Positions 19,967-50,668 of a stretch of 50,678 bases of DNA are shown here, in pieces (within the stretch, counting starts at the first letter, position 1; each line of letters starts with the position of its first letter). The stretch is from a virus (taxonomy: Duplodnaviria > Caudoviricetes). The notes beneath the pieces are model-generated. The model saw only the letters and a program-made list of their open reading frames with translations. It was not told the DNA's origin and did no database searches. The DNA is taken from positions 1 to 50,678 of IMG/VR virus record IMGVR_UViG_3300017766_003084, one strand, 5' to 3'. The position numbers and the translations under genes were made by a program.

Positions 19967-19974
19967 TAGAATCA

Positions 19975-21204
19975 TCAAGTCCGGGCTGGAACCGCCTTAC
20001 GCTTTGCGGGAGCACGCTTCACTGCTGGCTTCACCGGCTCTGGTTCTTCCGGAGTATCCAGATCTTCAACGACTGCTTGCACAGGTTCTTCGGTGAAGTC
20101 GTCCAGTTCTTCAGCAGGCTGTTCCGTCTGTGTTTTGCGTTCAGCAGCAGCGGCTTTCTTCGCTGCAGCAATCTCGAAGCAGGACGTGTGCCAGCCATCA
20201 AACAGGATCGGGAAGTCGCGGTAGTTCTCCTGCTCTTTCTTCGACAGCTTGATGTCAGTCACCTTCAGGCCACTCTCGCCGTTCAGGCAAGCACGTACTG
20301 CCTTGACGAACGGGCCAACCCACTCAAGGTCTCGGTCCTTACTGCCCGGCTGTGCCATCAGGTTGTTCCAGTAGCCAGTCAGGGCGTGAGCGACTGAACC
20401 CCTCTCGTAACCGTTGCCAGTGGAAAGCTGAGACAACAGCATCTCGACTTTGTCACAAGCGTCACTGTCGATCATCAGACCGTTATCGGTGTCCTCAAAA
20501 ACGCAAGCGGCGTAGAGAAGTGCAGCAGTGTACGGCAGGGACATCTTCAGTCCGCCGTGTCCGCCGTCACCGTCGTTTGCGTCCAGAACCATCGTGACGA
20601 ACTGACAGAGGTTGTAGTGCTTGTCCTTCAGGAAGTCGAGCATCTCGCTGATCTGGAACTTCGGAGCGTCACTGACGACTGCTCCACCTTCCATCAACCA
20701 TACAAGACGTGCTGCACCAGCCAGCGTCTTTGTCCACGTCTTACGACGGCTGGCCGTGTTGTTCCAGTCGGCACTGATCACGCTGTCAATCCACGGATCA
20801 CGGAACAGAACGTCGCCGTGAGTACGGGACTTGCCAGTGTCAACGGTGTCGGCAGTTTCAGGCTCAACACCGCGAACAATGACAACGTCAATCTCGGTCT
20901 GTGCTTCCGGCCACTCTTCGCCCTTGTCCAATGCTTCGCAAGCAAGAATGAGGGCCTTGAGACGATGCTGTCCGCTGACCAGATGACCCAGATTGTCAAA
21001 GATCAAAGGTTCGCCGTTGACTCGCCACTTGCCACGCAACTTCTCGTTGGCGTACAGCTTTGCGACGCCCATCGACATCGGGCGATTGCCCTTGTTGCAC
21101 TCTTTCAGAACGTAGTCAGCAAACTCGCGGCCAATGCGAACTACCGTCGAGGTGACAGGACTGTTGACCTTCTTTGTACGCTTCATCGCAACTTCAAACG
21201 ACAT
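19975..21204 (-). CDS. ParB/Srx-like N-terminal domain protein
   Basis: NRP...YA....G.W..NGEPLIFD..G.LVSGQHRLKA...VDTGKSRT..D. Low-complexity C-terminal tail. Confidence 0.75.
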   Translation of the reverse strand: MSFEVAMKRTKKVNSPVTSTVVRIGREFADYVLKECNKGNRPMSMGVAKLYANEKLRGKWRVNGEPLIFDNLGHLVSGQHRLKALILACEALDKGEEWPEAQTEIDVVIVRGVEPETADTVDTGKSRTHGDVLFRDPWIDSVISADWNNTASRRKTWTKTLAGAARLVWLMEGGAVVSDAPKFQISEMLDFLKDKHYNLCQFVTMVLDANDGDGGHGGLKMSLPYTAALLYAACVFEDTDNGLMIDSDACDKVEMLLSQLSTGNGYERGSVAHALTGYWNNLMAQPGSKDRDLEWVGPFVKAVRACLNGESGLKVTDIKLSKKEQENYRDFPILFDGWHTSCFEIAAAKKAAAAERKTQTEQPAEELDDFTEEPVQAVVEDLDTPEEPEPVKPAVKRAPAKRKAVPART

Positions 21205-21307: not shown

Positions 21308-22087
21308 TCAGAATTTTTCCGCATCGTAGTTTTTGTTGATTCTGCGGGCGGTCAGCATCTGCCTCAGAGTCTCCAATCGCTCAACTGATTCTTCTGGTTT
21401 TTCACCCGAGAGTAACCGAGTAGACCTGCCGCACCAGTTGACTCCTGCTGGTCCCAAGTGCAGCACTTCGAACGGGGGACGGATTTTGTTTGCCTCACTC
21501 CAGTTCTGCTGAAAGAAAGAATCTGCACCGCCAGCATGTCTCCAGTTGACTTCGTGCCAAGGCGGTTCGGGCAGGTGCCTGTCAGTGCCGTGAAATATCT
21601 GTGTGTAACCAGCAAACTCCTGTTGTTGTGGGTGTAACGGGAAAGTTTTCCAGTAAGGTTCGTGAGGCACACGATCAGGAATGTTAATGCACATTCTACG
21701 CTTTGGTGTGTACAAACAGCCGGGAACCATTTTGAACTTGTTGTTCTGAGGCACGAAACCTTCTGGAACAAGAAATTCCCAATCAATTTGTTTAGGCCAA
21801 AGAACGTCTGCGTCCATCAAGCACAGCCAACCGTGTCTGCCAAAGTAATCGAGTCCGAGTTCCAGTGCTGCCCACTTGTTGAACTTTGCACCGTTGGCAG
21901 TGAAAACGTCAGTGCGAAACATTGGCACATCGTACTTGTCAGCAATGTACTTCGTTGCTCTGTCACGCATGTTTGTGACAATGAGTATCTCTTTGAAGTG
22001 ATGCCTGTTGTAATCCAGTGTTACGTTGAGTAAGTCTGAATAGTCAACACACACGATAATAGCACGCAAGGGGGTGGACATGGTCAT
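21308..22087 (-). CDS. GT-A fold glycosyltransferase (GT2-like)
   Basis: AIIVCVDYSDLL, FNKWAALELGL, DxD motif LMDADV, GYTQIFH, GGADSFF. Confidence 0.8.
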   Translation of the reverse strand: MTMSTPLRAIIVCVDYSDLLNVTLDYNRHHFKEILIVTNMRDRATKYIADKYDVPMFRTDVFTANGAKFNKWAALELGLDYFGRHGWLCLMDADVLWPKQIDWEFLVPEGFVPQNNKFKMVPGCLYTPKRRMCINIPDRVPHEPYWKTFPLHPQQQEFAGYTQIFHGTDRHLPEPPWHEVNWRHAGGADSFFQQNWSEANKIRPPFEVLHLGPAGVNWCGRSTRLLSGEKPEESVERLETLRQMLTARRINKNYDAEKF

Positions 22088-23007
22088 TTCTCCAAGTAGT
22101 CGATGACACGACGTTTTTCTGAAGGAACAGTAATGATTGGAAGAATCCCGTGCTTGGCTTTACCATGCAAAGATTCATACATACCGGATACTTCGGTGAT
22201 GTGCTCTCCTTGTGCAAGTCTGTGCTGTGCTCGAAGCGGCACTAGGCAATTGTTGCAGTGTTGTTCAACTTGATGCTTGAACGTTCGCATCGGCTCTTTC
22301 CACCAGCCTTCATGAACGTTCTCGGGAGTAATCGGAATGCCAGTGTCAGGATAGTTAGGATCGTCCTGAAGCAGCACAGCCTGACCACCAGCGACTTCAC
22401 AGAAGAACCCCCGAAGTTCTCCACGGAACTGACAGATCATTGCGGACCAATGCCTGTTGATGTCACAGTTTGTGATGAGGTTATACCGCTCTGTTTCATC
22501 AGGTACTGCTGCGGTAAGGTCGCCGTGAACAGCAGAGTGTCGGCTGTCTTTGTCAGCACCAAAAGGCATTGATTCTGGCCAGTCTCGTTTGAATTCATCG
22601 TAGGCTTTCCTGTTGAGGTGAACATTCAGATTGCTCATTCGAGGGTTAAAGGTTTTCCGCATCACAGAGCCTTCGCCCAACGGATTGTTGCACCAGATCC
22701 CACACTTGTCTTGCGGGAAGTAGGATCGAAGGATGCTGCAGATCCTGTTGAACTCGGGGTGCATTGCAGGGTTGCCACCGAATATGCCGATTAGTCCGAA
22801 GTAGTCATGAACTGACTGACAGGCTAACTCGAAGTTCTGTGGTGTCATGTAGTGACCCCTGCCAGCAAACTGACTGCCTTGTGTGCAGTTGCTACAGGCA
22901 AGGTCACAGGAGCGTGTGATGTTTATTTGCATCACACCTTCCATCCACTTTCCCGGTCTCCGTTGAGACGGGGAAACCATCGCGTCAACGTAGTGATCAA
23001 TACTCAT
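22084..23007 (-). CDS. Radical SAM protein
   Basis: CxxxCxxC (CDLACSNC), FGGNP, additional C-terminal Cys (CDI, FCEVA, CNNC). Confidence 0.88.
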   Translation of the reverse strand: MSIDHYVDAMVSPSQRRPGKWMEGVMQINITRSCDLACSNCTQGSQFAGRGHYMTPQNFELACQSVHDYFGLIGIFGGNPAMHPEFNRICSILRSYFPQDKCGIWCNNPLGEGSVMRKTFNPRMSNLNVHLNRKAYDEFKRDWPESMPFGADKDSRHSAVHGDLTAAVPDETERYNLITNCDINRHWSAMICQFRGELRGFFCEVAGGQAVLLQDDPNYPDTGIPITPENVHEGWWKEPMRTFKHQVEQHCNNCLVPLRAQHRLAQGEHITEVSGMYESLHGKAKHGILPIITVPSEKRRVIDYLEK

Positions 23008-36474: not shown

Positions 36475-37185
36475 TTATTGTGCCAGATTTCTCCTGACAT
36501 TCAAGACTCGCATTCTCAGCGATTGAAGGTCTGGAGTTTCAACCTGAGCCTTATTCAGTGCTTCCCGAGGGATTTCCAAACAGTTCAACATGGCAGTCTC
36601 AGGTTTGCCATTTCGAACCGAATGAAACAGTCCCTTAGAGACCGCCTCAGAAGCACTGAGGTAAGTTTCCTTGTCGAGCATATCAATCACTTCCTCTTCC
36701 TTCAAGGGAGTTCTGGAAGTGAAGATGTTCTTAATGCTGTCACGGTGAGCCGTCCAACGCTTCGCTGCGTTTTCAGCAGAAGCCTGACTGTCGATCTTTT
36801 CGTACATGTATGGGTTGTGCATCATGAACAGTCCGCCGTTGCAGATCTGTCGGTTTGATCCGGCCAGAGCCAGCCATCCCGCAGAACTGAAGGCATACCC
36901 GTCTACGATGGTTGTAACAGTTCCTCGGTGCTCAAGCAACTGATTGTAGATTGCCAGAGCAGAGCCGACTTCACCACCGTTTGAATTGATGCGTACAGTG
37001 AGTTCTGCAGGAGCATCCTTCAGAAAGTTGAGCACGTCGGACGGAGTCACAGACGTGTCGCCGTCGTAGTATTTCTGAGGAAGAATGTAGTCATAGATGA
37101 GCAACTCGTTCTGTGCGTTGAACGATGCTCGGGTTTCCATTTGCTCGCCGCTGGGCAGAGTCTTACGATTCAGAACCAGTACCAT
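36475..37185 (-). CDS. ClpP-like (S14) prohead protease
   Basis: RINSNGGEV, DGYAFSSA, FMMHNP, ETYLSASEAV..G. Confidence 0.9.
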   Translation of the reverse strand: MVLVLNRKTLPSGEQMETRASFNAQNELLIYDYILPQKYYDGDTSVTPSDVLNFLKDAPAELTVRINSNGGEVGSALAIYNQLLEHRGTVTTIVDGYAFSSAGWLALAGSNRQICNGGLFMMHNPYMYEKIDSQASAENAAKRWTAHRDSIKNIFTSRTPLKEEEVIDMLDKETYLSASEAVSKGLFHSVRNGKPETAMLNCLEIPREALNKAQVETPDLQSLRMRVLNVRRNLAQ

Positions 37186-38980
37186 CGCTGTTCTCCGTGT
37201 ATTTTCTGTCAGCCAGCCAACTGTCAATCAACGATTGACAATTGAAGTTCTCAACCACGTCCTGCCACGGGAGTAATTGTTCTCGTAGCATGTTCGCAAA
37301 CTTGCCGTCTGCTGCATAGAACTCTGCGACCGCAGCGTCGTAATCATCTTTTCGTGTCTGCTTCTTTTGATCCAAGACACGGGCTTCATACTGCTTCAGT
37401 CCGTTAATAACGTTCTGATACGCTGTCTGAATCTGATTATTGGCTTTACGCAGTCGTTTGTCAATGTTGTCCTTCGACGGTGAATTATCCATGTCTTTCT
37501 GCGTAGTCGCTCCTGGTGCCTCAGGAGTCTTTACAGGCTTTACCATTCCGCTGTTTGTCTGGCGTTGCTGTTCCTTCTGCAGGTCCAGCATCTCAAGATT
37601 TGAATTAGCAGTCTCGTTTGCAATGCGAGCCTGATCCTCAAGCAGCAAAGAGTGCTCGACAGTCATCAGGTTCACAGGCACGTAACGAGGGTCTGCAGCA
37701 GCGTCCCTCGGGTCGATGAAGAACCCGAGCAACTGACGAGTCTCAGCACGGTTCAGTACGCCGATCTCCATGAGGTTACGCAGAGATCCTGTGAATTTGT
37801 CAATGACGTTTCGGTACAGGTAGATACGCTCGAAGTCGAATCTGAACAACCTGCGTGATGTCAGTGGGAGTAATTCGTTCCTGAACTGAATACACAGATG
37901 ATCCAGAAATGGTCCGATGCCTGTCTGTACAAACAAAGCCATCGCCTGAGCCAGATCCACGTCTCCAGCTTTCGTACCCATGTAGGAGTGCAGCAGCGAG
38001 GGAGGAATGTTGAAGCCGCGAGCCACATCCTCTACGCTGAATGCACGAGTCTCGATGAACTGAAGGTGCTGGAACGGAATACCCATGTGAACAGGTTTCA
38101 GTCCCTGTTCAAGGATGCGTGTCTTGAAGATTGCTTCAAGTGGTGCATTGGGATCTTCCAGAAAGTTACTCTCGATCCGCTTCAGAACTTCTGGAGCAAG
38201 ACGATTATCAGTCGTCAGGAACATCTGTGTGGCGATACCCTTCGTGTAGAAGGATCGTCCAAATTCTTCAGATGCTTCGTACAACTGCACACTTCGACTA
38301 CTGTTAATTACGAATCCCTGACCACGGAAGTGCTCAGCGTCGTACAGTTTGTTCGAGAAGTGACAGATGTACTCCTTCGGAACAATAATCGCTTGGGTGT
38401 TGGTATCGCGGGAAGATTCTCCTGTGTTGATGACGTAGATGATCTCACCGGCTGTTGCGGTGCGACCATCAAACAACTTCTCGCTTCCGTTAGCACGTCG
38501 GATGTTGGTAACGGGAATGCGTGAGGGATGGATGTAACTGAGACGTGATGTTCGGCCTTGCAGGTCGAACTCTCTGAGAAAGTAACAGTTGCCGTCCATC
38601 AGAACGTCATACACGATCATGCTGAAGGCACGATCAGAGTCGAGTTCTGGATTGAAGTAATGACTGAACAGGCGGCTGGCAGGATGGGCAGTCGTGCTGA
38701 CAATGCGTGTCGGAGTATCGGTGTCAGGGTCAACACCATACATACGACGGGGAAGCCCCATCAGCAAACCGGAGTACGTTTCCAGAGCACACTTCACTGC
38801 TGTCAGTTTGAGAGCGGATTTCGAAGCGTCAGTGTAGTAGGTCTCATGGTTCATTATGCCGATCAGATTCTGCCACGTCATCGTAGCAGAGTTCTGTACA
38901 AGGCTGTGGGCGTAGTCGATCAGCGTGCGAATAGCACCGTGTTGATTACGCTGTTCAGGCTTACGAAACCATGAGATCAT
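37163..38980 (-). CDS. Portal protein (HK97 family) with C-terminal extension
   Basis: VKCALE.YS..L..LP, DGNCY, ILEQGLK, QFIETR, VARGFNIPP, NRAETR. Confidence 0.92.
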   Translation of the reverse strand: MISWFRKPEQRNQHGAIRTLIDYAHSLVQNSATMTWQNLIGIMNHETYYTDASKSALKLTAVKCALETYSGLLMGLPRRMYGVDPDTDTPTRIVSTTAHPASRLFSHYFNPELDSDRAFSMIVYDVLMDGNCYFLREFDLQGRTSRLSYIHPSRIPVTNIRRANGSEKLFDGRTATAGEIIYVINTGESSRDTNTQAIIVPKEYICHFSNKLYDAEHFRGQGFVINSSRSVQLYEASEEFGRSFYTKGIATQMFLTTDNRLAPEVLKRIESNFLEDPNAPLEAIFKTRILEQGLKPVHMGIPFQHLQFIETRAFSVEDVARGFNIPPSLLHSYMGTKAGDVDLAQAMALFVQTGIGPFLDHLCIQFRNELLPLTSRRLFRFDFERIYLYRNVIDKFTGSLRNLMEIGVLNRAETRQLLGFFIDPRDAAADPRYVPVNLMTVEHSLLLEDQARIANETANSNLEMLDLQKEQQRQTNSGMVKPVKTPEAPGATTQKDMDNSPSKDNIDKRLRKANNQIQTAYQNVINGLKQYEARVLDQKKQTRKDDYDAAVAEFYAADGKFANMLREQLLPWQDVVENFNCQSLIDSWLADRKYTENSDGTGSES

Positions 38981-41940
38981 TTCAACCCCCGTATATCGCT
39001 GATCGTCTGAACCTCGGGATATAGCCAACCACCAACTGCCATCAAGGACGCTACTACACCGTCGATCTTCTGCGTGCTCTTTGACTTGTCTGGCCGGTAC
39101 TTCCCGTCTCTGTCAGACACGATAACAACGTTTCCAGCTTCCCATTCCAACACTGTGTTTCCACCATGAAACAACTGACGGTCAGTTATCATTGCCTCAA
39201 GTTTTCGACACGGTTCATTCATGCCAGCAAAGTTCTGCGGGTATGCTCGTGCAGGATACCCGAATTCCTTCAGTCTGACATAGACAATTCGTGCCGCAAA
39301 GCGGTCAAAGCAAACTTCTCGCAATCCACGGAAGTGAGACAGAATGCCCGGATACTGGTCGTTACCGAGCATGGCTGTCAGGATCGCTTCGTCGTCTGTT
39401 GTGTCCAATGGACTTGTGGAATTCAGGAGACCCGATTCCCACCAGTTTCCGTAGGGGATGTTTTGTTCTTTCTGCCTTCTGTACACTGATGCCGCAGGAC
39501 ACCAGCACCAGTGCAGTATAACGCCACGCTGAGGAAAGAAAAGAGCCAGTGAAGCCAAGTCCTGCACAATCGTGTTGTCGAACCCAGCGTAGCATTCTTC
39601 GTCTCTCAGTTCTTCACACTGTTTGATAAACCACGACCAGTATTGCTGTTGCCCATTCAGGTACACATCGACAGATGAAGATTCGTAGAATCGGTTATCC
39701 AGAGCAATGTTGTTCCAAGTCGCATGTTCTGACATCCACTGTTTGATCTCGGGCACTGAAAGTAATTCGACATTTTCCGGATTGCCCCTTGCCCAGATGT
39801 ACGAAGGAATCCATGCTGTTTCAGTCTTTGTTTGAATGTTCAGATGCAACCTGAGAAACCTGTTCAGTTCCTGTGGGTTGTTCTGAACAGAAGAAACCAT
39901 ATCTTCGAAGTATTCCTCCGTGATAGACTTACGGAAGTTTGGGTTTGCTTTCGACCAAACCACAGGACTCCTGAAGTCGTCTGTTGGGAGTGCTTCGTAG
40001 ATTATCGGCAGAAAAGAAGGCTGAACCTGACGGTTATCCCGGATTGCTCGGGCCTTCTCCAGCAACTGATTACAGACCGAAGGGCGGTCATAGTCTGCAG
40101 TCGTCGTGTAAACTGTGAGAGGTTGACGACGAGATGCAGTACCTGTTTTCATTACATCAATCAGTTCTCCACTTGTGTGTGCATGAACTTCGTCCACGTA
40201 AACGAAGTTTGGTGACAGCCCGTGTTTTGTGTCAGCAACAGACGACAGAACTTTGAACACTGATCCGTCATTGTGTTCGAACGACCTTGTTGACTTGTAG
40301 ATACGTTTATCTTTGAGTCGAGACAGCAGATTGGGGTTCTGCTGAATCATGAACTCTGTGTGTCTGAAATTGACAGATGCTTGCTCTACGTCAGCAGCAC
40401 AGCAGAAGTTTTGAGATCGCTGTTCTTTGTCGTAGAAAAACATCAGCAGTGTAATCACCGCACCAAAGGCTGTCGTGTTGTGTGTCGGAAGGTACTGCTC
40501 CCCAAAAAGGTATGTGCCAGAATCAGAACTTACCTGAATGCAAGTCATTGGTCTTGGTTTAGATGGAACAATACTAACAATATGATTTGATTTTGACCTT
40601 CCCCTGTGTGGTTTCATCCTATTGAGTTTTCTGAGCAGCCTAAACACTTCATGCTCTTTTCTGCCCGCAGAAAACTGAATATCGTAGTACGTTCCTTCTG
40701 TTCTGTTCTGAGATTGTTTTTTCTTTTCAGTAATGGACGCCTTGAGACCGAGAGAGTAGCACAGACGAACAATTCCATCTGCAAGAGTTTTGTTCTTTTG
40801 GATTATGTTCAAACAAGTACCTGTTTTGTTTATTGTACCGTCTGTGTCCATCAACCCCTGCAAAAGATGCAGTCTTTGTTTTCTTGATGCCGTGAAATAA
40901 ACTTCTGGAATGTGTTTGTTGTTCTTTAATTTCAACGACGACAATACAGAGCCTGACAACTGAGACAGACTTACGCGAGGACATTTATCAGCGTAGCGAC
41001 TGACTTTGTACTTTGACCAAAAATGAAGGTCTTGATCTCCAACAGAAATGTACGGTCCAGCAGAACTTCCATCGCCAAGCCACGCTCCAAGTATGTAAGG
41101 ATTTACAGGCAGATCTGCTTCATCACATTCAATACCAGAGTGCATTTTCACATTGAATGTCTTACCGTAGGAGCAGTCAACTCCAGCGTCAAACATTTCC
41201 TGTGTTGTCCAAACTGACTCATACGTGCATTTGCCGACAGAGTTCGTTACTGTCTTTACTCCGGATTTCCTACTCACCTTCTTTGTTTTACTGTCAACGC
41301 TTGGGTGTTGTTTTTTTGAAAACACATGCCATTGGTGATCTGCACCAGCCTCAACTGAATGACCGCTTGAAAACGTTACAGTGTAAGTTTTCTCAGGGAC
41401 TCTCGGCTCGGCGACAAACACGACTTGACATTGCTTTCCGTCTTTGTCGAATACTGTGTCTCCTACAGCCAGTTCACCGATTGGAGTAAATCCTTTCGGA
41501 GTTGGAATCGGAGTTGTCATGCACAACTCTTTACCATTCTTTCGAGGGACGTATATAAAGCATTCTTTATATCGACGGTAATTGCTCCCCACCTTCTTCC
41601 AGCAGAACAAGTTGGCGTATACAGCCGACTGCCAGACTTCAGGTATGAAACTTTTACCTGTCAGTTCTCCTTCAGGGTAGCACGCTTCGTTGGTAACGAA
41701 TGAGATGATCCTGTACCACTCGTCTACGTCAAAGTAATACCCCTCCGCTTGTGCGAAGGGGTCGTAGTCAGGAACTGTTCTCAGGAACTTGACGATGTTT
41801 CGATGAGTCCACTTCCAACCTATCAATCGACCATGCTCGTAGATTGTGTCAGGTACTGGAACTTTTCTCAGCGATCTTTTCTCGTTTGTCCTGAAGAATG
41901 AGTTGAGTGATGTATCTTCTTGTTCTTCTGTCGTGGTCAT
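38977..41940 (-). CDS. terL: Terminase large subunit, interrupted by an intein
   Basis: YVPRKNGK / TT Walker A split by the intein, Walker B YVDEVH, TTTA motif, ANP, KIDGVVASLMA. Confidence 0.95.
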   Translation of the reverse strand: MTTTEEQEDTSLNSFFRTNEKRSLRKVPVPDTIYEHGRLIGWKWTHRNIVKFLRTVPDYDPFAQAEGYYFDVDEWYRIISFVTNEACYPEGELTGKSFIPEVWQSAVYANLFCWKKVGSNYRRYKECFIYVPRKNGKELCMTTPIPTPKGFTPIGELAVGDTVFDKDGKQCQVVFVAEPRVPEKTYTVTFSSGHSVEAGADHQWHVFSKKQHPSVDSKTKKVSRKSGVKTVTNSVGKCTYESVWTTQEMFDAGVDCSYGKTFNVKMHSGIECDEADLPVNPYILGAWLGDGSSAGPYISVGDQDLHFWSKYKVSRYADKCPRVSLSQLSGSVLSSLKLKNNKHIPEVYFTASRKQRLHLLQGLMDTDGTINKTGTCLNIIQKNKTLADGIVRLCYSLGLKASITEKKKQSQNRTEGTYYDIQFSAGRKEHEVFRLLRKLNRMKPHRGRSKSNHIVSIVPSKPRPMTCIQVSSDSGTYLFGEQYLPTHNTTAFGAVITLLMFFYDKEQRSQNFCCAADVEQASVNFRHTEFMIQQNPNLLSRLKDKRIYKSTRSFEHNDGSVFKVLSSVADTKHGLSPNFVYVDEVHAHTSGELIDVMKTGTASRRQPLTVYTTTADYDRPSVCNQLLEKARAIRDNRQVQPSFLPIIYEALPTDDFRSPVVWSKANPNFRKSITEEYFEDMVSSVQNNPQELNRFLRLHLNIQTKTETAWIPSYIWARGNPENVELLSVPEIKQWMSEHATWNNIALDNRFYESSSVDVYLNGQQQYWSWFIKQCEELRDEECYAGFDNTIVQDLASLALFFPQRGVILHWCWCPAASVYRRQKEQNIPYGNWWESGLLNSTSPLDTTDDEAILTAMLGNDQYPGILSHFRGLREVCFDRFAARIVYVRLKEFGYPARAYPQNFAGMNEPCRKLEAMITDRQLFHGGNTVLEWEAGNVVIVSDRDGKYRPDKSKSTQKIDGVVASLMAVGGWLYPEVQTISDIRGLK
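40477..41529 (-). mobile_element. Intein (351 aa, class 3 signature) with LAGLIDADG homing endonuclease
   Basis: Block A ELCMTTPIPTPKG...GD.V, block B DHQW, endonuclease motifs YILGAWLGDG and LLQGLMDTDG, block F MTCIQV, block G PTHN followed by extein Thr. Confidence 0.92.
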
Positions 41941-41954
41941 GGGGGTGTTGACCG

Positions 41955-43571
41955 TCAGTTATCAAAGACAATGTCCGATGAACTTTCGAATGACATAACG
42001 TCTGTCCCAGTTCCGGACCATGTGAATTTCAGTGTGGCTGTGTATCTGTAACCCAACAGCCCTTTGGCAGTTTCTGAAGAAGAAATCTCTACACGAACGT
42101 ACGGAGCATTGGCAGTGCCGGTTCCCGGAGGATTGATAACCGTTGCTGTTCCATTGACGATTCGCGATGCGTTTGTCTCTTTCGCCCTGCTTACAGTGAA
42201 TGTAACAGTTGCTGCTGAAAAGTCGAGTGAGCCTGCTGTATCAAGCGGGATACCGTCAGTATCCACAATAGGTATATCAATTGCTCGACCATTGGCAGCA
42301 GTGTAGCTGTCACCGATCTTCAGCGTTGTCGGGAAGCCTTGAATGGTTCCCGGCTCAAGCACTGCTCCTGCGAGTAATGAAGTAACAGCACCAGAACTAG
42401 TAATCAGATCCGTCTTGTTCTGTATCAGGTCCAACTGATCGAGGATCAGTTCCTGATTTTGCAGTGTTGCTGATCCACCACCTGCTCCTGCAGGGCCATT
42501 CTCCAGCATGTTGACAGTAAACTGCCATACAGCACCGTCCTGTACCAGTCCTGTGTTTACACGGTCTGTGACAACCTTGATTGCAGCGATACCCGAGTTG
42601 TCCGGGGCCGTGTAAGCACTCGAAGCAAGTCGAGACAATACGTTGTTATTTATTGTCGTCTGATTGTCGAGAGTCGCCAACCCTGACTGGATCTCTGTGA
42701 CCGCACTTGCTGCAATTGCGTTAGCACTAATCACGTCCGTCTGAAACTCATGCACGTCTGCCGCTATATGGTTACTGCCTGTGACCTGCACAGTCCGGTT
42801 ATTGTTCAACGCCAGAATAAATCGCACGCCATACGATCCGCTCACAGTGTGATCGGCTGGCAGTGCTGCGTACACGCCAGTGACAACCTGTGCCACTGTC
42901 GGCGGTGTCGTGTAGCTTGCTGTGGGCAACGGCATACCTGTCACCGTCACGCCGCCCCACTGATCCGTGTTTGCTGTGACTCGTGCCGTCACCGATCCGA
43001 CTGCCCCTGTCACGCTGCCCACAGCACCCGTAACAGATCCCACAGCCCCGCTCACACTCGCGACCGCCTGCGTCGTGCTGATTGTCGTCCCGCTGAGATT
43101 CAACGTCGTCGTCGGATTCTCGACGTTGCCTAAGTCGATCCCTGCCGCACCTGTTGCCGTAACGTCGAGCGTTCGCCCTGCAGTCGTTGGCCGCAGTGCT
43201 CCGAATGCGTCGGTCTGGTAATCGACCGCATCCAACTCGATGTAAATGTTCACAGGTGCCATATTGTTAGCACCTCGCAATTGGATCGCGACCCCGTTCC
43301 CGCCGTCTAGTGCTGCGTCCGGAATGCCGATTTCATACCACCCGGGCATGTTAGCATTGTCGACCGCGATGAACCCGCCGCTCGCGTATGTGCCAAGCGT
43401 TGCCGTTGCCAGCGTTATCGGCACCTCGTTGTTCAGGTCGCCTGCAAAATAATAGGCAACCAATCCGCTCGAATTGTAGACCAAATTCGCCAACCCGCTG
43501 CCGTCTGTTTTGCTGGTGTCAGCTATGAATATCAATCGCCGAACTGAGGTAGACCCTCGCTTAATTTTCAC
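41955..43571 (-). CDS. Putative virion fibre or accessory structural protein, 538 aa
   Basis: G/T/A/S/V-rich, three tandem V(T/S)GAVGS repeats, a short coiled coil and a beta-rich C-terminal domain. Confidence 0.6.
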   Translation of the reverse strand: MKIKRGSTSVRRLIFIADTSKTDGSGLANLVYNSSGLVAYYFAGDLNNEVPITLATATLGTYASGGFIAVDNANMPGWYEIGIPDAALDGGNGVAIQLRGANNMAPVNIYIELDAVDYQTDAFGALRPTTAGRTLDVTATGAAGIDLGNVENPTTTLNLSGTTISTTQAVASVSGAVGSVTGAVGSVTGAVGSVTARVTANTDQWGGVTVTGMPLPTASYTTPPTVAQVVTGVYAALPADHTVSGSYGVRFILALNNNRTVQVTGSNHIAADVHEFQTDVISANAIAASAVTEIQSGLATLDNQTTINNNVLSRLASSAYTAPDNSGIAAIKVVTDRVNTGLVQDGAVWQFTVNMLENGPAGAGGGSATLQNQELILDQLDLIQNKTDLITSSGAVTSLLAGAVLEPGTIQGFPTTLKIGDSYTAANGRAIDIPIVDTDGIPLDTAGSLDFSAATVTFTVSRAKETNASRIVNGTATVINPPGTGTANAPYVRVEISSSETAKGLLGYRYTATLKFTWSGTGTDVMSFESSSDIVFDN

Positions 43572-44248
43572 TGGTCTGCACCTCCTCGAACATTCACTGG
43601 CCGATAGCCGCCGCCTGATGATTTCGCAACCCCTGTGTCCATCATTTCTGCAACTATATGCACAGTATTGACATTACTGGCTGCAGTAACGGTTATAACT
43701 GGCCAACTTGAAACAGAACTTCCCGTGTCGTGTAATGCCAAATAACCAGTGCTTGATCCTGCATAAACTGCCCTGTTCGTCATACCGCTCGGGGCTGCAC
43801 TTCCGACCCCTGTGTTTTCGTAGATATAAATTGCACCGAATACGACCGCTGCAGCGTTCTGTAACTTTGTCGGTGTGTTTAGAGACGAATACTGAGTAAT
43901 GTTTGGATAAGTAACAGATGTGGTGTTGCGTGTATTGCTTCGATTACAACCGCCCAGTGCACGATAGTTTGTGGAGTCTCTATAAACCGCAGCCATAATA
44001 AGGTGCGAGCCAGTCCATGTTCCGCTGGTTTCACTTGCGCTTGTTGCAATTTTCCAACCAACAAATAGACATCTTGCAGGCGATACCCCATCAGCACTGG
44101 CGATTGGGACACTCCAGCCAGACGGAATGGTCGGAGCGAATCCGGTATTATTTCCGGTTAAAATCAGCAGCAAATCGCCCGCTTGATGCGTCGGTATGGT
44201 AACGCTTGTAGCTTGTGCTGAATTAGCTGCCTGAAACGCAATAGTCAT
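43568..44248 (-). CDS. Putative virion-associated beta-sandwich protein
   Basis: VTIP..QAGDLLLI...PSGW pattern, S/T/A-rich, ATGA coupling. Confidence 0.6.
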   Translation of the reverse strand: MTIAFQAANSAQATSVTIPTHQAGDLLLILTGNNTGFAPTIPSGWSVPIASADGVSPARCLFVGWKIATSASETSGTWTGSHLIMAAVYRDSTNYRALGGCNRSNTRNTTSVTYPNITQYSSLNTPTKLQNAAAVVFGAIYIYENTGVGSAAPSGMTNRAVYAGSSTGYLALHDTGSSVSSWPVITVTAASNVNTVHIVAEMMDTGVAKSSGGGYRPVNVRGGADQ

Positions 44249-44817
44249 AGCGTCACCTGCACAGCAGCCGCCGCCGTGAACGCCGCCCGAATTGACGCCT
44301 CAGTCCGTGCGGGATCTGCCGCCGCTGGATTGACAATCTGGTTCATCGCTTCCGCGAAAACGCTGTCCGCTGCCAGTTGCCTGATTGCGTCCGCCTTCTG
44401 TTGAGCATACTCGGCTTCGGTCGTGTCCTTGAACGGTCGCCCGCCGTCGAGTGCGTAGAACGAATCGACCAGCCCGGCTGCTGTGGGGTTCAGTCCGCTG
44501 ATCGTCTGCACAATGCCCCACACCGTGACTGATGCTGGCGGTTGAGTCGTGTTTAGGGTTTGCAGACTGTCACCCCAGATCGCTGCAAAGAATTGATCGA
44601 GTGCCGCCTGCTGCTGTGGTGTTGCTGCAGGATAGGCCACCGACAAACTGCCGCCCATGGTGCCGTCAGGCTTGCGGAACCACAGGCCTTGCTCTCGCGA
44701 CCATTGCCGGACCCTCGCGGGATCAATTGGCCCGCTGGTGATCGTCTGCAGTATGGCGACGATTTCCACGTCGGTGCCTGTCAATCCCATCGCCTGTGCT
44801 GTCTGGTATGCGTTCAT
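44245..44817 (-). CDS. Ala-rich hypothetical protein, 190 aa
   Basis: ATGA coupling at both ends. Confidence 0.7.
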   Translation of the reverse strand: MNAYQTAQAMGLTGTDVEIVAILQTITSGPIDPARVRQWSREQGLWFRKPDGTMGGSLSVAYPAATPQQQAALDQFFAAIWGDSLQTLNTTQPPASVTVWGIVQTISGLNPTAAGLVDSFYALDGGRPFKDTTEAEYAQQKADAIRQLAADSVFAEAMNQIVNPAAADPARTEASIRAAFTAAAAVQVTL

Positions 44818-45086
44818 TCTGTGACTGCCTGCTGTGTTGTCTGAATGCTCAGTTCGTCTTTGAGGTCTGTCGTTAATGCAGCAATACCCTTGAGCGTCTT
44901 TCCTGCTTCAGTAAACGATGTGGCTTCCAAGCAGTCTTTCAGGTTCCAAAGGCAATCTCCAACCAACTGTTCCGCCTTCTCCATTTCGTGTATTGCAGAT
45001 TGCAGAGCGTCCTTCAGCAGACGGCACTTGTCTGTGGTAGGTGACGGTTCGTCCCCCTGAAAGAGTGACAGTTGCGAAGGACTCAT
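44814..45086 (-). CDS. Small helical protein with N-terminal QLSLF motif
   Basis: GGAG RBS. Its stop overlaps the next ATG. Confidence 0.6.
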   Translation of the reverse strand: MSPSQLSLFQGDEPSPTTDKCRLLKDALQSAIHEMEKAEQLVGDCLWNLKDCLEATSFTEAGKTLKGIAALTTDLKDELSIQTTQQAVTE

Positions 45087-45337
45087 AAAGCGGTATCTCC
45101 GAAACGGGGTGTGCTCTGTTTGCAGCAATACGAGCAGCTTCGTTTGCTACGTTGACAGAGTAACTGGAAAACAGAGTCTGTACTGCCAGACTCTGAAAGA
45201 TCAATGCCTTGTACAGCATATCATCCCACTTGCACTTCAGTCGCGATTTATCATTTCGCTGTTTCACGTAGATTCCAGCGAGGAATGAAATCAGGGCGAT
45301 ACCTACAGTGATGTAGAACTTTTGTGTCAGGTCCATA
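44908..45337 (-). CDS. Membrane-anchored hypothetical protein
   Basis: N-terminal TM (FYITVGIALISFLAGIYV). Its 3' part overlaps 44814-45086. Confidence 0.5.
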
Positions 45338-45530
45338 ACAGACTCAATCCCCAGCATGTTCCACCGAAGAAAATTGCCCACGCAATTGCTTTCACTACAA
45401 GGTTCCACGTGTTCCCTGTGTGATCCATGAACGTCTTGGCAACGTCTTTATCCGCTTTGAAATGTTGGCCTGCAGCGGTAATCTCCAGACCAACATTATC
45501 ATCACGCTCTTCCTGTTGTCCATCCTGCAT
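45327..45530 (-). CDS. Small membrane protein (holin-like candidate)
   Basis: 67 aa with an acidic N-terminus and a C-terminal TM helix. Confidence 0.5.
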   Translation of the reverse strand: MQDGQQEERDDNVGLEITAAGQHFKADKDVAKTFMDHTGNTWNLVVKAIAWAIFFGGTCWGLSLLWT

Positions 45531-45579
45531 CAGCCTTGTCCCGTGCTGATTGTCGAATTGCGGGTAAACCCCAATTGTT

Positions 45580-46023
45580 TTATCGAGTAAACCCCATTTC
45601 CGCAAGGATATTTTTCCAAGAGCCTGAACTGTATCCGGTTCTGACTCTCACAATACCGTTTTTGTCGGTATATCTGAATGCGGGAATCATCGTTGGGGCA
45701 TCCTTCCATCGCTCATACTTGAGAGTAATCGGCAGATCTTTGACAGCAGCAAACTCTCGTTTCGCCAGTTGACACGGAGCACACCAGTCAGCAGAACTGA
45801 CCTGCAAAACCGGCTTGCCGTCGATATTTTCTGAAGAAGTAATTGATTGTTTGGCTGCTTCGAGGGCAGTCACCCGCTCTTCCAGTGCATCGAGCCGTTT
45901 GAGGATCAGCAGGCTGTCAGCAGACGCTGCAGGACTCTGATTACTCTCGTCACTGACGATCTCGGGAAGGGCCAGCAACAGACAGACAGACACGATTGCA
46001 CAGGCTGTAAACCACTCTTTCAT
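45580..46023 (-). CDS. Exported or membrane-anchored thioredoxin-like protein
   Basis: N-terminal hydrophobic signal, coiled coil, SADWCAPCQ active site, IPAF cis-Pro-like motif. Confidence 0.8.
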   Translation of the reverse strand: MKEWFTACAIVSVCLLLALPEIVSDESNQSPAASADSLLILKRLDALEERVTALEAAKQSITSSENIDGKPVLQVSSADWCAPCQLAKREFAAVKDLPITLKYERWKDAPTMIPAFRYTDKNGIVRVRTGYSSGSWKNILAEMGFTR

Positions 46024-46889
46024 AGTATGTATCCTCCACCAGCTTGAGTTCGTTTGTAGTACCGCTCGACAGGTTTGTCGGGCAGCAGTAAGTATGCCCC
46101 AAAAGGCTCGTACTTCATCTTCGCCAATTGGTCATACACCTTACGGGGTATGTAAAAGTATTCGTCGTTATGGCTGTTCCATGAGATGAAGTACCAGTCT
46201 GATTTGATCATCTCAGCCCAGATGATCGTGGTAGCGTGACCACCACCTCTTGTTGGAGGTGTAGCCATCACTTTCTTACCGTTGATCTGACTGCCCTCTC
46301 TGAACGGCCAGAAGGTACCTTGATGCAGGTTTCCGCCTGCAGCAAGACCGGCCAACAGAGATTCACTGTCAGGTGCTGGACGATGCTCAGTGACAAGTCC
46401 ATCCTGCAACTTGACTTTCTTGGCCCTTGCAACAAACCTGCTCGCAGAACGCTCGTAGGTGCCGTAAGGCCAATCAGTTTCAAGCGGAATACCCGGACCA
46501 ACACCGATAGACGGAATGCCTTCAGTCTGCAGTGTTACGCCAGCTTCAATCCATGTCCCACCGTCCTTACCGACTTGGTTGGGGGACATGATGTATTCAC
46601 TGGCGTTGTAGGCAAACGTGTCTGATTTCTGAGGAACTTTACCAGACGATTCATCAACTTCACCGCCTGAAACGTACCACCATCGTCTTTCGTTACCAGT
46701 GCAGGCTGAGTGAGCCTGGCAGTCGTTCTGTGTCTGATTCTGACGCCGCATGTACGGGCGAGGATCATTCTTCGGATCTTTTAGTACATCTTCCCAATTG
46801 GTGAAGTCAGAAGCCTTGACTGGGGGTTTTGCTTTCCTCAGCAAGGCTTCCTGTACTGCCGGATCTGACTTTAGCAGTTCACTCGGCAC
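46020..46889 (-). CDS. Papain-like (C1) cysteine peptidase
   Basis: NQTQNDCQAHS (oxyanion Gln and catalytic Cys), DGGT, WPY, GGHAT (His), WNSH (Asn). GGAGG RBS precedes a GTG start. Confidence 0.8.
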   Translation of the reverse strand: MPSELLKSDPAVQEALLRKAKPPVKASDFTNWEDVLKDPKNDPRPYMRRQNQTQNDCQAHSACTGNERRWWYVSGGEVDESSGKVPQKSDTFAYNASEYIMSPNQVGKDGGTWIEAGVTLQTEGIPSIGVGPGIPLETDWPYGTYERSASRFVARAKKVKLQDGLVTEHRPAPDSESLLAGLAAGGNLHQGTFWPFREGSQINGKKVMATPPTRGGGHATTIIWAEMIKSDWYFISWNSHNDEYFYIPRKVYDQLAKMKYEPFGAYLLLPDKPVERYYKRTQAGGGYIL

Positions 46890-47559
46890 TGAAGTACCTC
46901 CTGATGTAAAGTGCGTGTTTTTCTGGTGTCCACTGCTCTCCGCCAAACTCCAGTTCTTCAGCAGTCAACAGACTTGTGAATGCCTTGACCTGACATTGAC
47001 GGTGAGCAGCCTTGAACCAGTCAGCCGCTTCCTCTTCCGACGAGATGACTTTGTTTTCCAGTCGAGTCGCCAGTTCCTTTTGTGCCAGTCGCCATTCACG
47101 CTCATACACCCTGAAAGCCTTAGCGACATCGTCTTTTGGCTCTACAGGGCCGGGAGTAATGGGATCGGGCTTCGGAACGTCGATAACGTCCAGAAGGCGT
47201 CTGCGAAGGCTCTGACGGCCTTTACTGCCCTCGGGACGATACATGATCTCGACACGACCTGTTGCCTGTCCTTCGAGCACGTACAGGAACGGAGAATCAG
47301 CAACAAGTGTCTGTATGCCGGATTGACCGGCAAATTTACCTCGAAGTCGAGTTCCCGTAGGAACTTCTTCGATAGTGACTATGCCTGCAGGAGAATCGAA
47401 AACGTCAAGAGGAACGGGACTTTGAATCAAGTACCATTCCTCTGTCGTGAATTTGTCGATTTCTGCAGGTGGCTTGGGCGTGTCCGCCTTGATAGTTTCT
47501 GAAGGAAAAACAATAACAGGTTCCTGCAGCAAACAAGCCAGCAGCAGAAGAAACTTCAT
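46879..47559 (-). CDS. Exported protein with Pro-rich linkers
   Basis: MKFLLLLACLL signal-like N-terminus, PKPDPITPGPVEP, GGAGG RBS. Confidence 0.7.
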   Translation of the reverse strand: MKFLLLLACLLQEPVIVFPSETIKADTPKPPAEIDKFTTEEWYLIQSPVPLDVFDSPAGIVTIEEVPTGTRLRGKFAGQSGIQTLVADSPFLYVLEGQATGRVEIMYRPEGSKGRQSLRRRLLDVIDVPKPDPITPGPVEPKDDVAKAFRVYEREWRLAQKELATRLENKVISSEEEAADWFKAAHRQCQVKAFTSLLTAEELEFGGEQWTPEKHALYIRRYFSAE

Positions 47560-47560
47560 G

Positions 47561-47998
47561 TCATTCCTCCGTTGAAAGCGATGCAGCAGCCAAAGTGCGA
47601 TAACTCTCAGCAGAAGTCGAGTGTGCTTCCTGCAGAGCCTTGTCGGCCAGTTCGAGTGAGTCGGTGTCAGACAGGATGTACTTCGACTCGTTGAACATCG
47701 CACCAGACTTCTTTGCGGCACGCTTCAGCTTCTGACCGTGCTTGAACCAGCGGTTGCGGAGTTCCTTCGCGAAGTTCTCGCGGGTCTGCACGTAGTTCTT
47801 CGCACACATCGCAACAACAGTCGTCTGAACCTGATCAGGCTGGATACCACGTCGCTTCTGAATGCAGTTCAGAATCAGCGGCAACACTGTTGAGATGATG
47901 GTTGTAATCGTGATTGGATCAATTCCGACGTTTCTTGCACCAACTCGTCGGATGATTCCCTGACAGAACGCTTCAATCAGGCTTTTCGGGAGTGACAT
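47561..47998 (-). CDS. Membrane protein (one TM, basic C-terminus)
   Basis: IDPITITTIISTVLPLILNC hydrophobic segment. Confidence 0.7.
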   Translation of the reverse strand: MSLPKSLIEAFCQGIIRRVGARNVGIDPITITTIISTVLPLILNCIQKRRGIQPDQVQTTVVAMCAKNYVQTRENFAKELRNRWFKHGQKLKRAAKKSGAMFNESKYILSDTDSLELADKALQEAHSTSAESYRTLAAASLSTEE

Positions 47999-48526
47999 TA
48001 CTTGCTTTCTCTCTCAGAGAGTAATGAAGAAGATGCAGTACCTCACTGCATCTATCAGACGTTCAGTATCAGCGATGTACTGACGACATTATTTTCTCCA
48101 CAACCCCCCTCCCCCTTCGCCTCTTTTATGGGCGAAAGGTTCATGTTGGAAGGTTGGAGAAATTACTTTCTCCTCACCGCTATCAGGCTTTCTGTTTATT
48201 TGTATGCCGTGCTCATAGCCGTCAGGTAGCGTGTACCTCCCCGTTAGAGCACGCTGTCCGATATTACGCTCGGCGGGGTCGTCGCCCCTTTGCACAGACG
48301 TGTTTCAGCCTGTACGGTAGACTGGGATTCTCAGGATTGCAAGTCTGATTCATGGAAATTCCAAAATACCCCGCCAGAACGCACAGGAATGCGTCTGCGG
48401 GCCTCAAATAGCCAAGACGACTCTCAGGTCGTCCATCGCAATCGCAGGCCCTGTAATGGCCTCTAATGCGTTCGTACTGTACAAGTAGTGTACAAGGAAT
48501 CTGTGGAAAATCTGAAAGAATTACAG

Positions 48527-48554
48527 TTGATCGGTACGATAATCTTGATAGAAT
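48527..48554 (+). promoter_or_regulatory. Putative promoter of the right-end + strand cassette
   Basis: TTGATC-N16-TAGAAT upstream of an AAGGAG RBS. Confidence 0.5.
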
Positions 48555-48582
48555 TTCCGTACCTCGCGAACGAAAGGAGCGA

Positions 48583-48789
48583 ATGACAATGGCTGCTGAA
48601 ACAGTAGGGATCTCAGCTACGGCTGAGTTCTGGAGAAAAGTAGATGCACTGTCGCGTCAGACTGGTCAGTCTCGCAGTGCTGTGATCGTGGAGACATGCT
48701 GTGAAGCATGGAATGTGAGAGGGCTGGTGTCCAAGCCTGTTGGTCGTCCGAAGAAGCATAAGGGCGTGAAGAAAGTGAAAGGTGCTTGA
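48583..48789 (+). CDS. Ribbon-helix-helix (CopG-like) DNA-binding protein with GRP (AT-hook-like) tail
   Basis: TVGISATAEFWRKVDALSRQTGQSRSAVI...GRPKK. Confidence 0.75.
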   Translation: MTMAAETVGISATAEFWRKVDALSRQTGQSRSAVIVETCCEAWNVRGLVSKPVGRPKKHKGVKKVKGA

Positions 48790-48790
48790 T

Positions 48791-49024
48791 ATGGCTGATA
48801 CATGCCCGAAGTGCAATGCTCCGTTCAGACGACACCACACTGGATTCCACTGTGGGACAGAAGTGGATGAAAGCAGCGGTTCAGTGATACAGAGTCCACT
48901 GTGCCGTCAGACAACTCTGGAACGAGAACATCAGGAGATGCGTAGACTCCTGACTGAAGTGATCAGTGCGAAGGGAAAGATCCCTGATAATCTACAGAAA
49001 CAGATTAAGGAGATGTTGGGATGA
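48791..49024 (+). CDS. Small putative Zn-binding protein
   Basis: CPKC...HCG...C. Confidence 0.6.
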   Translation: MADTCPKCNAPFRRHHTGFHCGTEVDESSGSVIQSPLCRQTTLEREHQEMRRLLTEVISAKGKIPDNLQKQIKEMLG

Positions 49025-49608
49025 GCGTGCAAGTATGTGAAGGAGTTTGGCGGACTCGGTGCGGGCAGCGGCTGCTGATTACGCAATGCGAACCGGTCGA
49101 TTTCCAGCGGTGGACGGACGGCGTGGATACGTACAGCGATGATGGGTCGTATTCGATTTGGGGTACTGGTCGCGAAAGCCCGCATGATCTGGTATCGTTC
49201 GTCGGGCTGCTGCCGGACAAGCCGCAGTCGGATCAGACAGCCGAGATTGATCGACTGAAAACAGAACTTTTACAGTTACAGGCGAGCGTGCCAAAAGCTG
49301 CTGTAGAAATTGATCGACTGAACAAGGTTTTAGGGGGACAAGCAGGTGTCATCGACTCTTTGAAGGAGTCGAACGAAAGGCTGGTGAATGAGGCTCTACA
49401 GGCACAGCAGTATGTGTCTGAAGCGAACGAGAAGATCAATCAGCAATCAACTGAAATAAAGCGGTTGAATCGGAATGTGGAGGAATTCGAAAGAATCGAC
49501 GAGCATAAGGATTCGGAGATTGATCACCTGCGACAACTCCGAAGAACGAACGATGCGATCATCAAAGAATTCAGGGAACTGTTGACGCACGCATTGTCCA
49601 AGAAGTAG
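49021..49608 (+). CDS. Coiled-coil hypothetical protein, 195 aa
   Basis: N-terminal WRTRCG...DLV domain, then repeated EIDRL heptads. Confidence 0.75.
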   Translation: MSVQVCEGVWRTRCGQRLLITQCEPVDFQRWTDGVDTYSDDGSYSIWGTGRESPHDLVSFVGLLPDKPQSDQTAEIDRLKTELLQLQASVPKAAVEIDRLNKVLGGQAGVIDSLKESNERLVNEALQAQQYVSEANEKINQQSTEIKRLNRNVEEFERIDEHKDSEIDHLRQLRRTNDAIIKEFRELLTHALSKK

Positions 49609-49659
49609 TCGCTGTGTTGGCGGCTCAGACCACGAGTATTTCTGAAAAGGAAGATTGTT

Positions 49660-50031
49660 ATGCCGGGCAGTAAAGGTAAAGGTAACGGAGTTGGTGTCGA
49701 GCAGATTCTTGCAACGAACGCATGGTTCGCGACACACAAGAACGAATTGCACAACTTGACTCGTGCTGAGATTTCAAAGCGAATCAAGGCGGATACCGGA
49801 ATGACCATCGGCACTCGCACTATCATTGCAATGCGAAAGCAGCATGAGATTCGCAGTCGAACTATAGGCACACCGGGGAAAACGTCAGCACTGAAGCGAC
49901 TGGCCATTGCTGAGGCTAGGATCACCAAACTGATTGAAATTTCGATTATCGTACACGAAACGATGGTCAGTTTGGGCGAAGCATCAGCAGCACGTCGGAT
50001 TGAAAGCCTGCTGGCCAGCAAGGCAGAATAG
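49660..50031 (+). CDS. Basic hypothetical protein, possibly DNA binding
   Basis: AGGAAG RBS. LTRAEISKRIKADTG helix pattern. Confidence 0.65.
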   Translation: MPGSKGKGNGVGVEQILATNAWFATHKNELHNLTRAEISKRIKADTGMTIGTRTIIAMRKQHEIRSRTIGTPGKTSALKRLAIAEARITKLIEISIIVHETMVSLGEASAARRIESLLASKAE

Positions 50032-50047: not shown

Positions 50048-50545
50048 TCAGCGGAAGTATGTGATTCCAGCAAACTCAGTGAGGGTTTGCTGGATCACTG
50101 CTGGTGCAGACACTGCATCAGGATTTGCAAGATACACGATGTCACGTGGAGACATCCCGATCTTTTCCATCAGCTTCAACATGATGACCTGATTGCGATT
50201 GAGGATATTCACCATCGGATTCGGGAACGTGCCAAGATAGTTCCCCTCTTCGTCAACACGATCGAAGGTGTATCCGTTCTTGCCGATGTTCTCCCGACAG
50301 GTATGCACGACATGCCAAGTCTCTACTAACTCAGAAACTATCAAGGTGTACGTCGGGCTGAGACATCGGCGTGACTCCATGTCCGTCACGATGAAGTCCC
50401 ACATCTTCTTCATTGCAGGGTTGTTCACAATACGCAGAGGTACAGGCATCTGAGATGCACTGCAGGTCTCTACGTCAATATCTCGCGGTGCAACATCAGA
50501 GAAGATAGCCAACTCCGTTGCAGTCTTACGCTTTCGTGGTGCCAT
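50048..50545 (-). CDS. terS: Terminase small subunit (P27-like)
   Basis: KMWD.I....., GYT, NPMVNIL..., IGMSPRD pattern, adjacent to the genome end. Confidence 0.8.
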   Translation of the reverse strand: MAPRKRKTATELAIFSDVAPRDIDVETCSASQMPVPLRIVNNPAMKKMWDFIVTDMESRRCLSPTYTLIVSELVETWHVVHTCRENIGKNGYTFDRVDEEGNYLGTFPNPMVNILNRNQVIMLKLMEKIGMSPRDIVYLANPDAVSAPAVIQQTLTEFAGITYFR

Positions 50546-50668
50546 GACATCATCCTTCAGGGGTGTGAGATCCAATGGCACCATTTGACACGATACTGGT
50601 ACGGTTTGTCAACAATCTCCTGCAACAATCACCCAGACCGCCCCCATAACAGCAACTTTGCGTCTGTT

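Follow-up and report, generated by a model that had tools for sequence, protein, structure and literature searches.

Gene content of the block

The stretch of DNA analysed here in its entirety (the window) is the viral record IMGVR_UViG_3300017766_003084, a single contig of 50,678 bases that is rated 97% complete, and the element in question is a block of five tightly coupled minus-strand genes at 45327-47998 which we have named A through E. A preliminary description had proposed this block as a late, non-canonical lysis module made up of membrane proteins, a C1 cysteine peptidase and an exported thioredoxin, in a phage without a recognizable endolysin, and all five genes are indeed present in the list of open reading frames (ORFs). 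Scanning the window ORFs against the PHROG and Pfam collections gave the map of a tailed phage, in which a long minus-strand operon begins at 47998 with the block and continues with a 226-amino acid (aa) minor-tail-like protein, a 538-aa fibre-like protein, the large terminase (TerL), the portal, a ClpP-like head protease, the major capsid protein and the connector and tail genes, to end in replication genes (polymerase, thymidylate synthase, primase). What stands of the term late is therefore the position at the head of an operon running into terminase, portal and capsid genes.

Gene A (47561-47998) encodes a holin candidate of 145 aa with one hydrophobic stretch at about residues 24-46, a predicted transmembrane helix; it gave weak matches only (phrog_608, a holin family, at E 0.097) and no Pfam family at E<=0.001. 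Gene B (46879-47559) encodes a predicted exported protein of 226 aa from ATG 47559, with GGAGG ahead of the start. Gene C (46020-46889) encodes a putative papain-fold cysteine peptidase of 289 aa; its start, GTG 46889, has AGGAGG ahead of it. The longest C ORF extends to 46946, and residue 20 of this ORF was taken as the true start because 31 homologues (241-291 aa) and the Atlas entry begin likewise. The stop of C and the start of D overlap as ATGA, and D (45580-46023), with a GGAGG-like motif ahead of ATG 46023, is a predicted exported coiled-coil protein of 147 aa. Gene E (45327-45530) most likely starts at ATG 45530, as in relatives, and would encode a tail-anchored protein of 67 aa with an acidic N-terminal part and a C-terminal transmembrane helix, a candidate holin or antiholin.

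Family and fold of the peptidase C

Taken alone, C gave no Pfam or PHROG match at E<=0.1 and did not reach the cut-off of the PF00112 family hidden Markov model (HMM), and neither C and B nor the profiles of both matched any PDB sequence. An alignment of 32 sequences showed Q71, C76, H237 and N257-S258-H259 to be invariant, in the catalytic order Gln-Cys-His-Asn of family C1. The AlphaFold2 (AF2) model of C (pLDDT 89.9, pTM 0.88) has the two-lobe papain fold and, searched with Foldseek, matched 251 PDB chains at E<=0.001, among them xylellain (3ois; E 2.9e-9) and cathepsins S and K (E up to 1e-7) as well as several pro-forms, with TM-scores of 0.45-0.65. A profile search of 1.84 billion representatives returned 159 relatives of C; PF00112 was matched by 42 of the 69 wider relatives sampled (best 1.1e-49), and hhalign joined the close clade to the Pfam-positive clade with 99.6% probability and with the motifs in register with GSCQGH, GGGHA and NSW/H. 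The invariant residues, the matches of the model, the PF00112 matches of the relatives and the profile alignment together place C in family C1, and by sequence and predicted structure it is a divergent papain-family peptidase that has kept its catalytic residues, in line with the preliminary assignment.

C has no signal peptide and a single conserved cysteine. About 40 residues lie ahead of the mature-type start, and the matches to pro-forms cover approximately 290-308 columns. In three larger homologues (515-535 aa) a hydrophobic anchor at the N-terminus precedes the C1 domain, so that the enzyme of these phages would be located outside the cytoplasm. The matches listed from BFVD include C1-fold phage proteins labelled peptidoglycan-binding or muramidase, as well as a weak match to Lysin A. 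Inteins were present in 8 of the 69 sampled members of the C family; in three homologues (P0077, P0150, P0166) they are of LAGLIDADG type and lie directly before the catalytic Cys, which would be the +1 residue.

A role of C in virion maturation was considered because proteases encoded in late operons usually serve that purpose. The genome has a ClpP-like head maturation protease of its own (36475-37227; E 5e-41), and the constant neighbours of C are exported or membrane proteins; this role was rejected on both counts and we regard it as very improbable.

The partner proteins B and D

The AF2 model of B (pLDDT 89.5) consists of a short hydrophobic N-terminal helix, a Pro-rich linker, a nine-strand beta-sandwich (residues 36-126), a second Pro-rich linker and a three-helix bundle (144-224). 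Wide conservation is restricted to the helical bundle, and in the short forms of B found in relatives the bundle is preceded either by a basic tail and a transmembrane helix or by a lipobox. B of the window has a hydrophobic start of only 10 residues and no transmembrane anchor, and gave no Pfam or PHROG match. Foldseek found weak matches of the beta-sandwich to EhICP2, amebosin, chagasin and the P. aeruginosa ICP (E 0.0025-0.017). The idea of a chagasin-type inhibitor (I42, PF09394) was rejected, as hhalign gave a probability of 0.09 and the signature loops NPTTG, GxGG and RPW are not kept, B having SPAG, FAGxxG and RPEGS in their stead; the short forms, moreover, are without the beta-sandwich. 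When residues 20-308 of C were co-folded with the helical bundle of B (138-226), the score was 0.11 against a mark of 0.32, a result which decides nothing either way.

D belongs to a family of 25 sequences with a hydrophobic signal-like N-terminus, a DEPxP motif, a heptad coiled coil and a domain of about 75 residues. In the window protein WCAPC occupies residues 80-84; WC[AG]PC is present in 24 of the 25 sequences and a cis-Pro-type proline, P114, is invariant, so that both the CxxC and the proline of the thioredoxin fold are found. The family profile gave weak matches in the PDB, nearly all of them to thioredoxin-fold proteins, with DsbC first (E 0.0012) and thioredoxins and CcmG among the others. 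The preliminary description had called D a thioredoxin, which agrees with the WCAPC motif and the weak matches of the family profile; D of the window itself stays below threshold in Pfam and PHROG (E ~0.009-0.011; Thioredoxin_7 at E 0.0085 and 16.6 bits, for a cut-off of 27). The near-invariant CxPC argues for a redox use.

The D position is variable in relatives. It may hold large proteins, such as a 407-aa form with an additional Cys-rich stretch (L007, 6741-7961), and at L061 (6793-7935) a Trypsin_2-type serine peptidase domain, assigned by eye, appears to be fused ahead of a CAPC thioredoxin-like domain. Tandem D paralogues are found at L048 (712-1708), one with CGPC and the other lacking both cysteines (YGSPQS), and by its sequence this latter paralogue suggests a non-redox use of the D fold.

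Conservation of the module in related phages

We fetched 141 loci, 61 viral loci of the close clade and 80 of the distant, Pfam-positive clade. By tblastn, B lies directly upstream of C in 56 of the 61, relatives of A lie upstream of B in 13 and relatives of E are present in 14. Of the 135 loci in which C was found, 111 also have the B domain according to an iterated HMM search. The partner after C was counted in the 128 loci with room for one: 103 have a Cys-pair protein, which is thioredoxin-like with CxxC in 63 and of another kind in 40, one has a thioredoxin-like domain without cysteines and the remaining 24 have something else. The other Cys-pair protein ends in CPxGxC...RRGLFG and is often a lipoprotein with a coiled coil. 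The block is flanked by small transmembrane proteins in relatives, and in most loci proteins of this type of about 150 aa occupy the A position. The cluster proposed from a single genome is thus conserved in related phages.

A scan of 150 neighbouring ORFs from 22 loci, to which A was added, found Phage_holin_10 in three of the 150 (best 1.3e-20), Thioredoxin_7 in three, Thioredoxin in one and Trypsin_2 in one (attributed by eye to L061), and lysozyme or amidase in none. At L144 (4281-5180), and likewise at L146, a matrixin-like zymogen of 300 aa is encoded two genes upstream of the papain-type peptidase and beside a protein with two transmembrane helices; it is composed of PG_binding_1 and Peptidase_M10 with a PRCGxPD-type cysteine switch, and the two contigs measure 172-179 kb. 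In L108-type loci the core has three genes, encoding a lipoprotein with the B-type helical domain, the peptidase and a 61-aa Cys-pair protein, and has head-tail joining genes on one side and an HK97-gp10-like tail gene on the other, instead of lying at an operon end.

Many of the D-position proteins in relatives combine a lipobox with a coiled coil, linkers rich in proline and conserved Cys pairs, and these are the elements from which i- and o-spanins are built. This raises the alternative that C is an endolysin while B and D are not redox helpers but spanin-like proteins, whose task would be to bridge an enlarged periplasm and break the outer membrane; the thioredoxin-like domain would then be one exchangeable module among several. 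The short forms of B would have type II membrane topology with a helical domain in the periplasm, D does vary in its middle domain between loci, and the planctomycete periplasm (for the host, see below) is described as extended (PMC12673574). We consider this unlikely, since B of the window has no transmembrane anchor, no clear lipobox was seen in B or D of the window and neither matched a spanin family, and since CxPC is kept in all but one of the thioredoxin-type D proteins.

Search for an endolysin

The preliminary description recognized no muramidase or amidase elsewhere in the genome, and our searches agree. No muralytic family was found among 59 window ORFs with PHROGs and 39 with Pfam, nor did PF05257 (CHAP) or PF00877 (NlpC/P60) match in this genome. 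Ten peptidoglycan-hydrolase Pfam families searched in six frames gave no match in five records (the window plus four relatives; two at least 90% complete), and in 39 further module-bearing records, 16 of them at least 90% complete, Phage_lysozyme, Amidase_2, SLT, Peptidase_M15_4 and Glyco_hydro_19 were never found over the cut-off; 14 control genomes served as controls for the hydrolase search. None of the muralytic families searched was thus detected over threshold in the 44 module-bearing records.

The same records bear on the alternative that the block has nothing to do with lysis, being a periplasm-directed module for host takeover, receptor destruction or superinfection exclusion in phages whose endolysin is hidden among ORFs of no assigned function. 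Many ORFs are indeed without a match, the L108-type module lies within structural genes, and the anchored homologues would be exported before lysis. Such a module would, however, require an undetectable endolysin in all 44 records, and C of the window, lacking an export signal, could not be active in the periplasm until the membrane opens; we judge this explanation to be improbable.

Host of the phage

There is no close cultured phage, the portal matching GenBank phages at <25% identity only. When genomes were scanned at one per species with the close clade, two contigs were found, both in one Planctomycetaceae metagenome-assembled genome (MAG); the window TerL was not found in MAG G005. The distant-clade search, which covered Planctomycetota only, gave profile matches in 41 of 401 genomes at E<=1e-10, four of which were strong and phage-sized; the others are mostly long ORFs and probably represent host C1 peptidases. 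The whole module, consisting of a B-like protein, C, an exported CxxC thioredoxin-like protein and transmembrane proteins, is present in prophages of three Planctomycetota genomes (G362, where it is inside a 3.0-Mb contig, G228 and G212), and in G362 it adjoins unannotated ORFs which are fibre-like, terminase-sized and portal-sized. These sequence matches indicate that the host is probably a member of the Planctomycetota, which agrees with the earlier guess of a host from the Planctomycetota-Verrucomicrobiota-Chlamydiota (PVC) group. Chagasin-family (I42) domains were observed in 5 of 151 Planctomycetota genomes searched (G024, G026, G089, G118, G149), in ORFs of 229-837 aa.

The host bears directly on the first mechanism proposed in the preliminary description, in which D would reduce a disulfide-cross-linked, Cys-rich protein layer and C would digest the proteins, lysis proceeding without any peptidoglycan hydrolase. 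C1 enzymes normally cleave proteins, neither a glycosidase nor an amidase was found, and the matrixin-like zymogen of L144 and L146 is a second protein-type protease beside the module. According to PMC12673574, planctomycete envelopes were described as protein-dominated, and peptidoglycan has been detected in several planctomycetes, a layer which would still need to be breached. A thioredoxin-like partner is present in only 63 of 128 loci while 40 have another Cys-pair protein, and envelope reduction can therefore not be the general mechanism; a lone small thioredoxin for which no electron source is shown would in addition be a poor bulk reductant. We regard the reduction and digestion of a protein wall as rather doubtful. 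Since other Cys-pair proteins can stand in for D, a thiol-based partner role is indicated instead, and the second option of the preliminary description, that the thioredoxin keeps the thiol of the protease active in the periplasm, fits better. Since planctomycetes possess peptidoglycan and these genomes contain nothing else capable of cleaving it, peptidoglycan peptides are the likelier substrate of C; the preliminary description had named a simple peptidoglycan endopeptidase, independent of the thioredoxin, among the cases that would refute it.

Flanking genes and other features of the genome

Downstream of E, a gene at 44908-45336 (minus strand) for a protein of about 142 aa with an N-terminal transmembrane helix is, by its position alone, probably a further member of the block; relatives have ORFs of 160-180 aa in this place with a transmembrane helix near residue 30, and conservation at the protein level was judged by eye. 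It is overlapped in another frame by a candidate gene at 44814-45128 (minus strand) for a helical protein of 104 aa with conserved cysteines, which has tblastn matches in 3 of the 61 close-clade loci. Within 44814-45408 both overlapping frames are open and alike in L002, L009 and L011, a layout that resembles overlapped spanin gene pairs, although the 104-aa ORF is without a lipoprotein signal. No match was obtained in the Atlas for the neighbouring ORF of 190 aa.

Upstream of the operon lie a short plus-strand block (48466-50031) and the small terminase gene (50048-50584, minus strand), identified by the PHROG and Pfam scans. The large terminase ORF (38977-41940, minus strand) encodes 987 aa, much above the usual size; separate stretches of it (115-585 and 490-978) match different TerL PHROGs, there are weak P-loop matches to primase and helicase-loader families, and on this sequence pattern an insertion or a fusion is possible. 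Between the block and this gene are those for the 538-aa fibre-like protein (41955-43571, minus strand), which bears tandem GAVGSVT repeats, and the 226-aa minor-tail-like protein (43568-44248, minus strand), an unusual site for tail genes. Auxiliary genes encode a CsrA-like regulator (19685-19978), a radical-SAM-like protein (22084-23007; sub-threshold) and a MazG-like pyrophosphatase (7774-8316). Promoter and terminator scans showed no excess relative to shuffled sequences.

Discussion

We lean, with modest confidence, towards reading the block as a lysis cassette in which the papain-fold peptidase C takes the place of the endolysin and depends on a holin for its release, D protects or gates the catalytic thiol of C in the periplasm and B is a periplasmic partner. 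The context is that of lysis genes: the block heads the operon before TerL, holin-family genes lie near some of the loci, and the neighbours combine a lipobox or transmembrane helix with coiled coils. C would fold in the cytoplasm, perhaps restrained by its N-terminal extension of about 40 residues as in xylellain and the procathepsins, and would enter the periplasm once a holin, which could be A, E or the next transmembrane protein, opens the inner membrane. There it would cut a load-bearing layer, most likely the stem peptides or cross-links of peptidoglycan and possibly envelope proteins too. D, presumably oligomeric through its coiled coil and placed beforehand in the oxidizing periplasm, would keep or restore the single catalytic thiol of C, a role that a different Cys-pair protein may take in other phages, while B could be a periplasmic tether, spacer or regulator. 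By analogy, D may thus work like DsbG or DsbC on the thiol of C, which does not make it a member of that family.

A number of points weigh against such a cassette. We know of no C1-family enzyme that cuts peptidoglycan, A has no significant holin match, and in 65 of 128 loci C is not followed by a D-type thioredoxin. In L108-type loci (e.g., L108:1478-4843) the module sits amid head-tail joining genes, which is odd for lysis genes, and the matrixin-like peptidase beside the module in L144 and L146 means that C need not act alone. The attempt to read the 515-535-aa homologues as B-C fusions failed: their N-terminal parts resemble B by eye (anchor, Pro-rich stretch, helices) and the B-domain HMM finds nothing in them. 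Four sub-threshold hydrolase matches occur in the 39 further records, among them a lysozyme-like one in a 665-aa ORF (E 0.002; G425) and SLT-like ones in 1112-aa ORFs (E ~0.008; G430, G431), and an undetected endolysin could hide among the many match-less ORFs, the absence being one of HMM matches and, for the 39 records, of five families. The lytic role of C is a prediction from sequence and models. Of the non-canonical lysis module first proposed, what holds is a conserved, envelope-directed module in genomes without a recognizable endolysin; the reduction and digestion of a disulfide wall is a conjecture.

Compared with the holin-endolysin-spanin system of lambda type, the cassette is alike in its small membrane proteins, signal-less hydrolase and exported or lipid-anchored coiled-coil proteins, in its position before the terminase at the head of the late operon and, in some relatives, in the holin-family genes beside it. 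It differs in that the hydrolase is a papain-family peptidase and not a muramidase, transglycosylase or amidase, and in that B and D have no counterpart. Among peptidases the nearest likeness is xylellain of Xylella fastidiosa (PDB 3OIS; C1, MEROPS clan CA), which shares the fold, the Gln/Cys/His/Asn motifs and a short N-terminal extension. Disulfides are typical of secreted C1A enzymes; C, with only one conserved cysteine, is without disulfides of this type, and it also departs from the papain family in falling below the Pfam threshold, in lacking a signal peptide and in being phage-borne with fixed partners.

Phage Cys-His peptidases that cut peptidoglycan peptides are reported for CHAP and NlpC/P60 domains in PMC10318531 and PMC3314691, the latter also describing a papain-like N5 domain in mycobacteriophage Lysin A; unlike C, these belong to other families and have no dedicated redox partner. 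As for D, PMC7089426 reports that DsbG protects single-cysteine proteins from oxidation in the periplasm. DsbC and DsbG resemble D in joining an oligomerizing N-terminal part to a periplasmic thioredoxin domain, and the D profile finds DsbC as its top match in the PDB. D, however, is about 80 residues shorter, any oligomer of it would form through the coiled coil, its matches, over the linker and CxxC, reach no better than E ~1e-3, and there is no shown link to DsbD. The activity of signal-anchor-release (SAR) endolysins such as P1 Lyz likewise depends on periplasmic thiol-disulfide chemistry. These are thiol-dependent lytic enzymes too, and three homologues of C share the N-terminal anchor; C of the window is without an anchor, and its thiol chemistry would be supplied in trans.

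A full-text literature search returned no description of the module in the portions of the published texts that it covered, and no C homologue was present in 50,697 GenBank phage records. To our knowledge, every well-studied tailed-phage lysis system breaches peptidoglycan by one of a few enzyme classes, and the block most likely represents an undescribed way of bursting the host. A wider proposal, which we put forward as a speculative and unlikely one, is that phages of Planctomycetota, and perhaps of other bacteria, lyse by a protease-based, thiol-gated system rather than with an endolysin that cuts glycans or amide bonds. The enzyme, of the papain family, would be armed in the periplasm by a dedicated thioredoxin or Cys-pair protein of the phage, an exported partner would hold it in place or in check, and its substrate would be protein, either in addition to peptidoglycan or in its place. 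If this were true, periplasmic chagasin-type inhibitors of bacteria could be an anti-phage defence. If C is lytic, phage lysis would gain a further catalytic family as well as a novel accessory principle, the dedicated periplasmic thiol partner, and C would provide a handle on the disputed envelope of the Planctomycetota and a new type of enzyme with which to open lysozyme-resistant cells.

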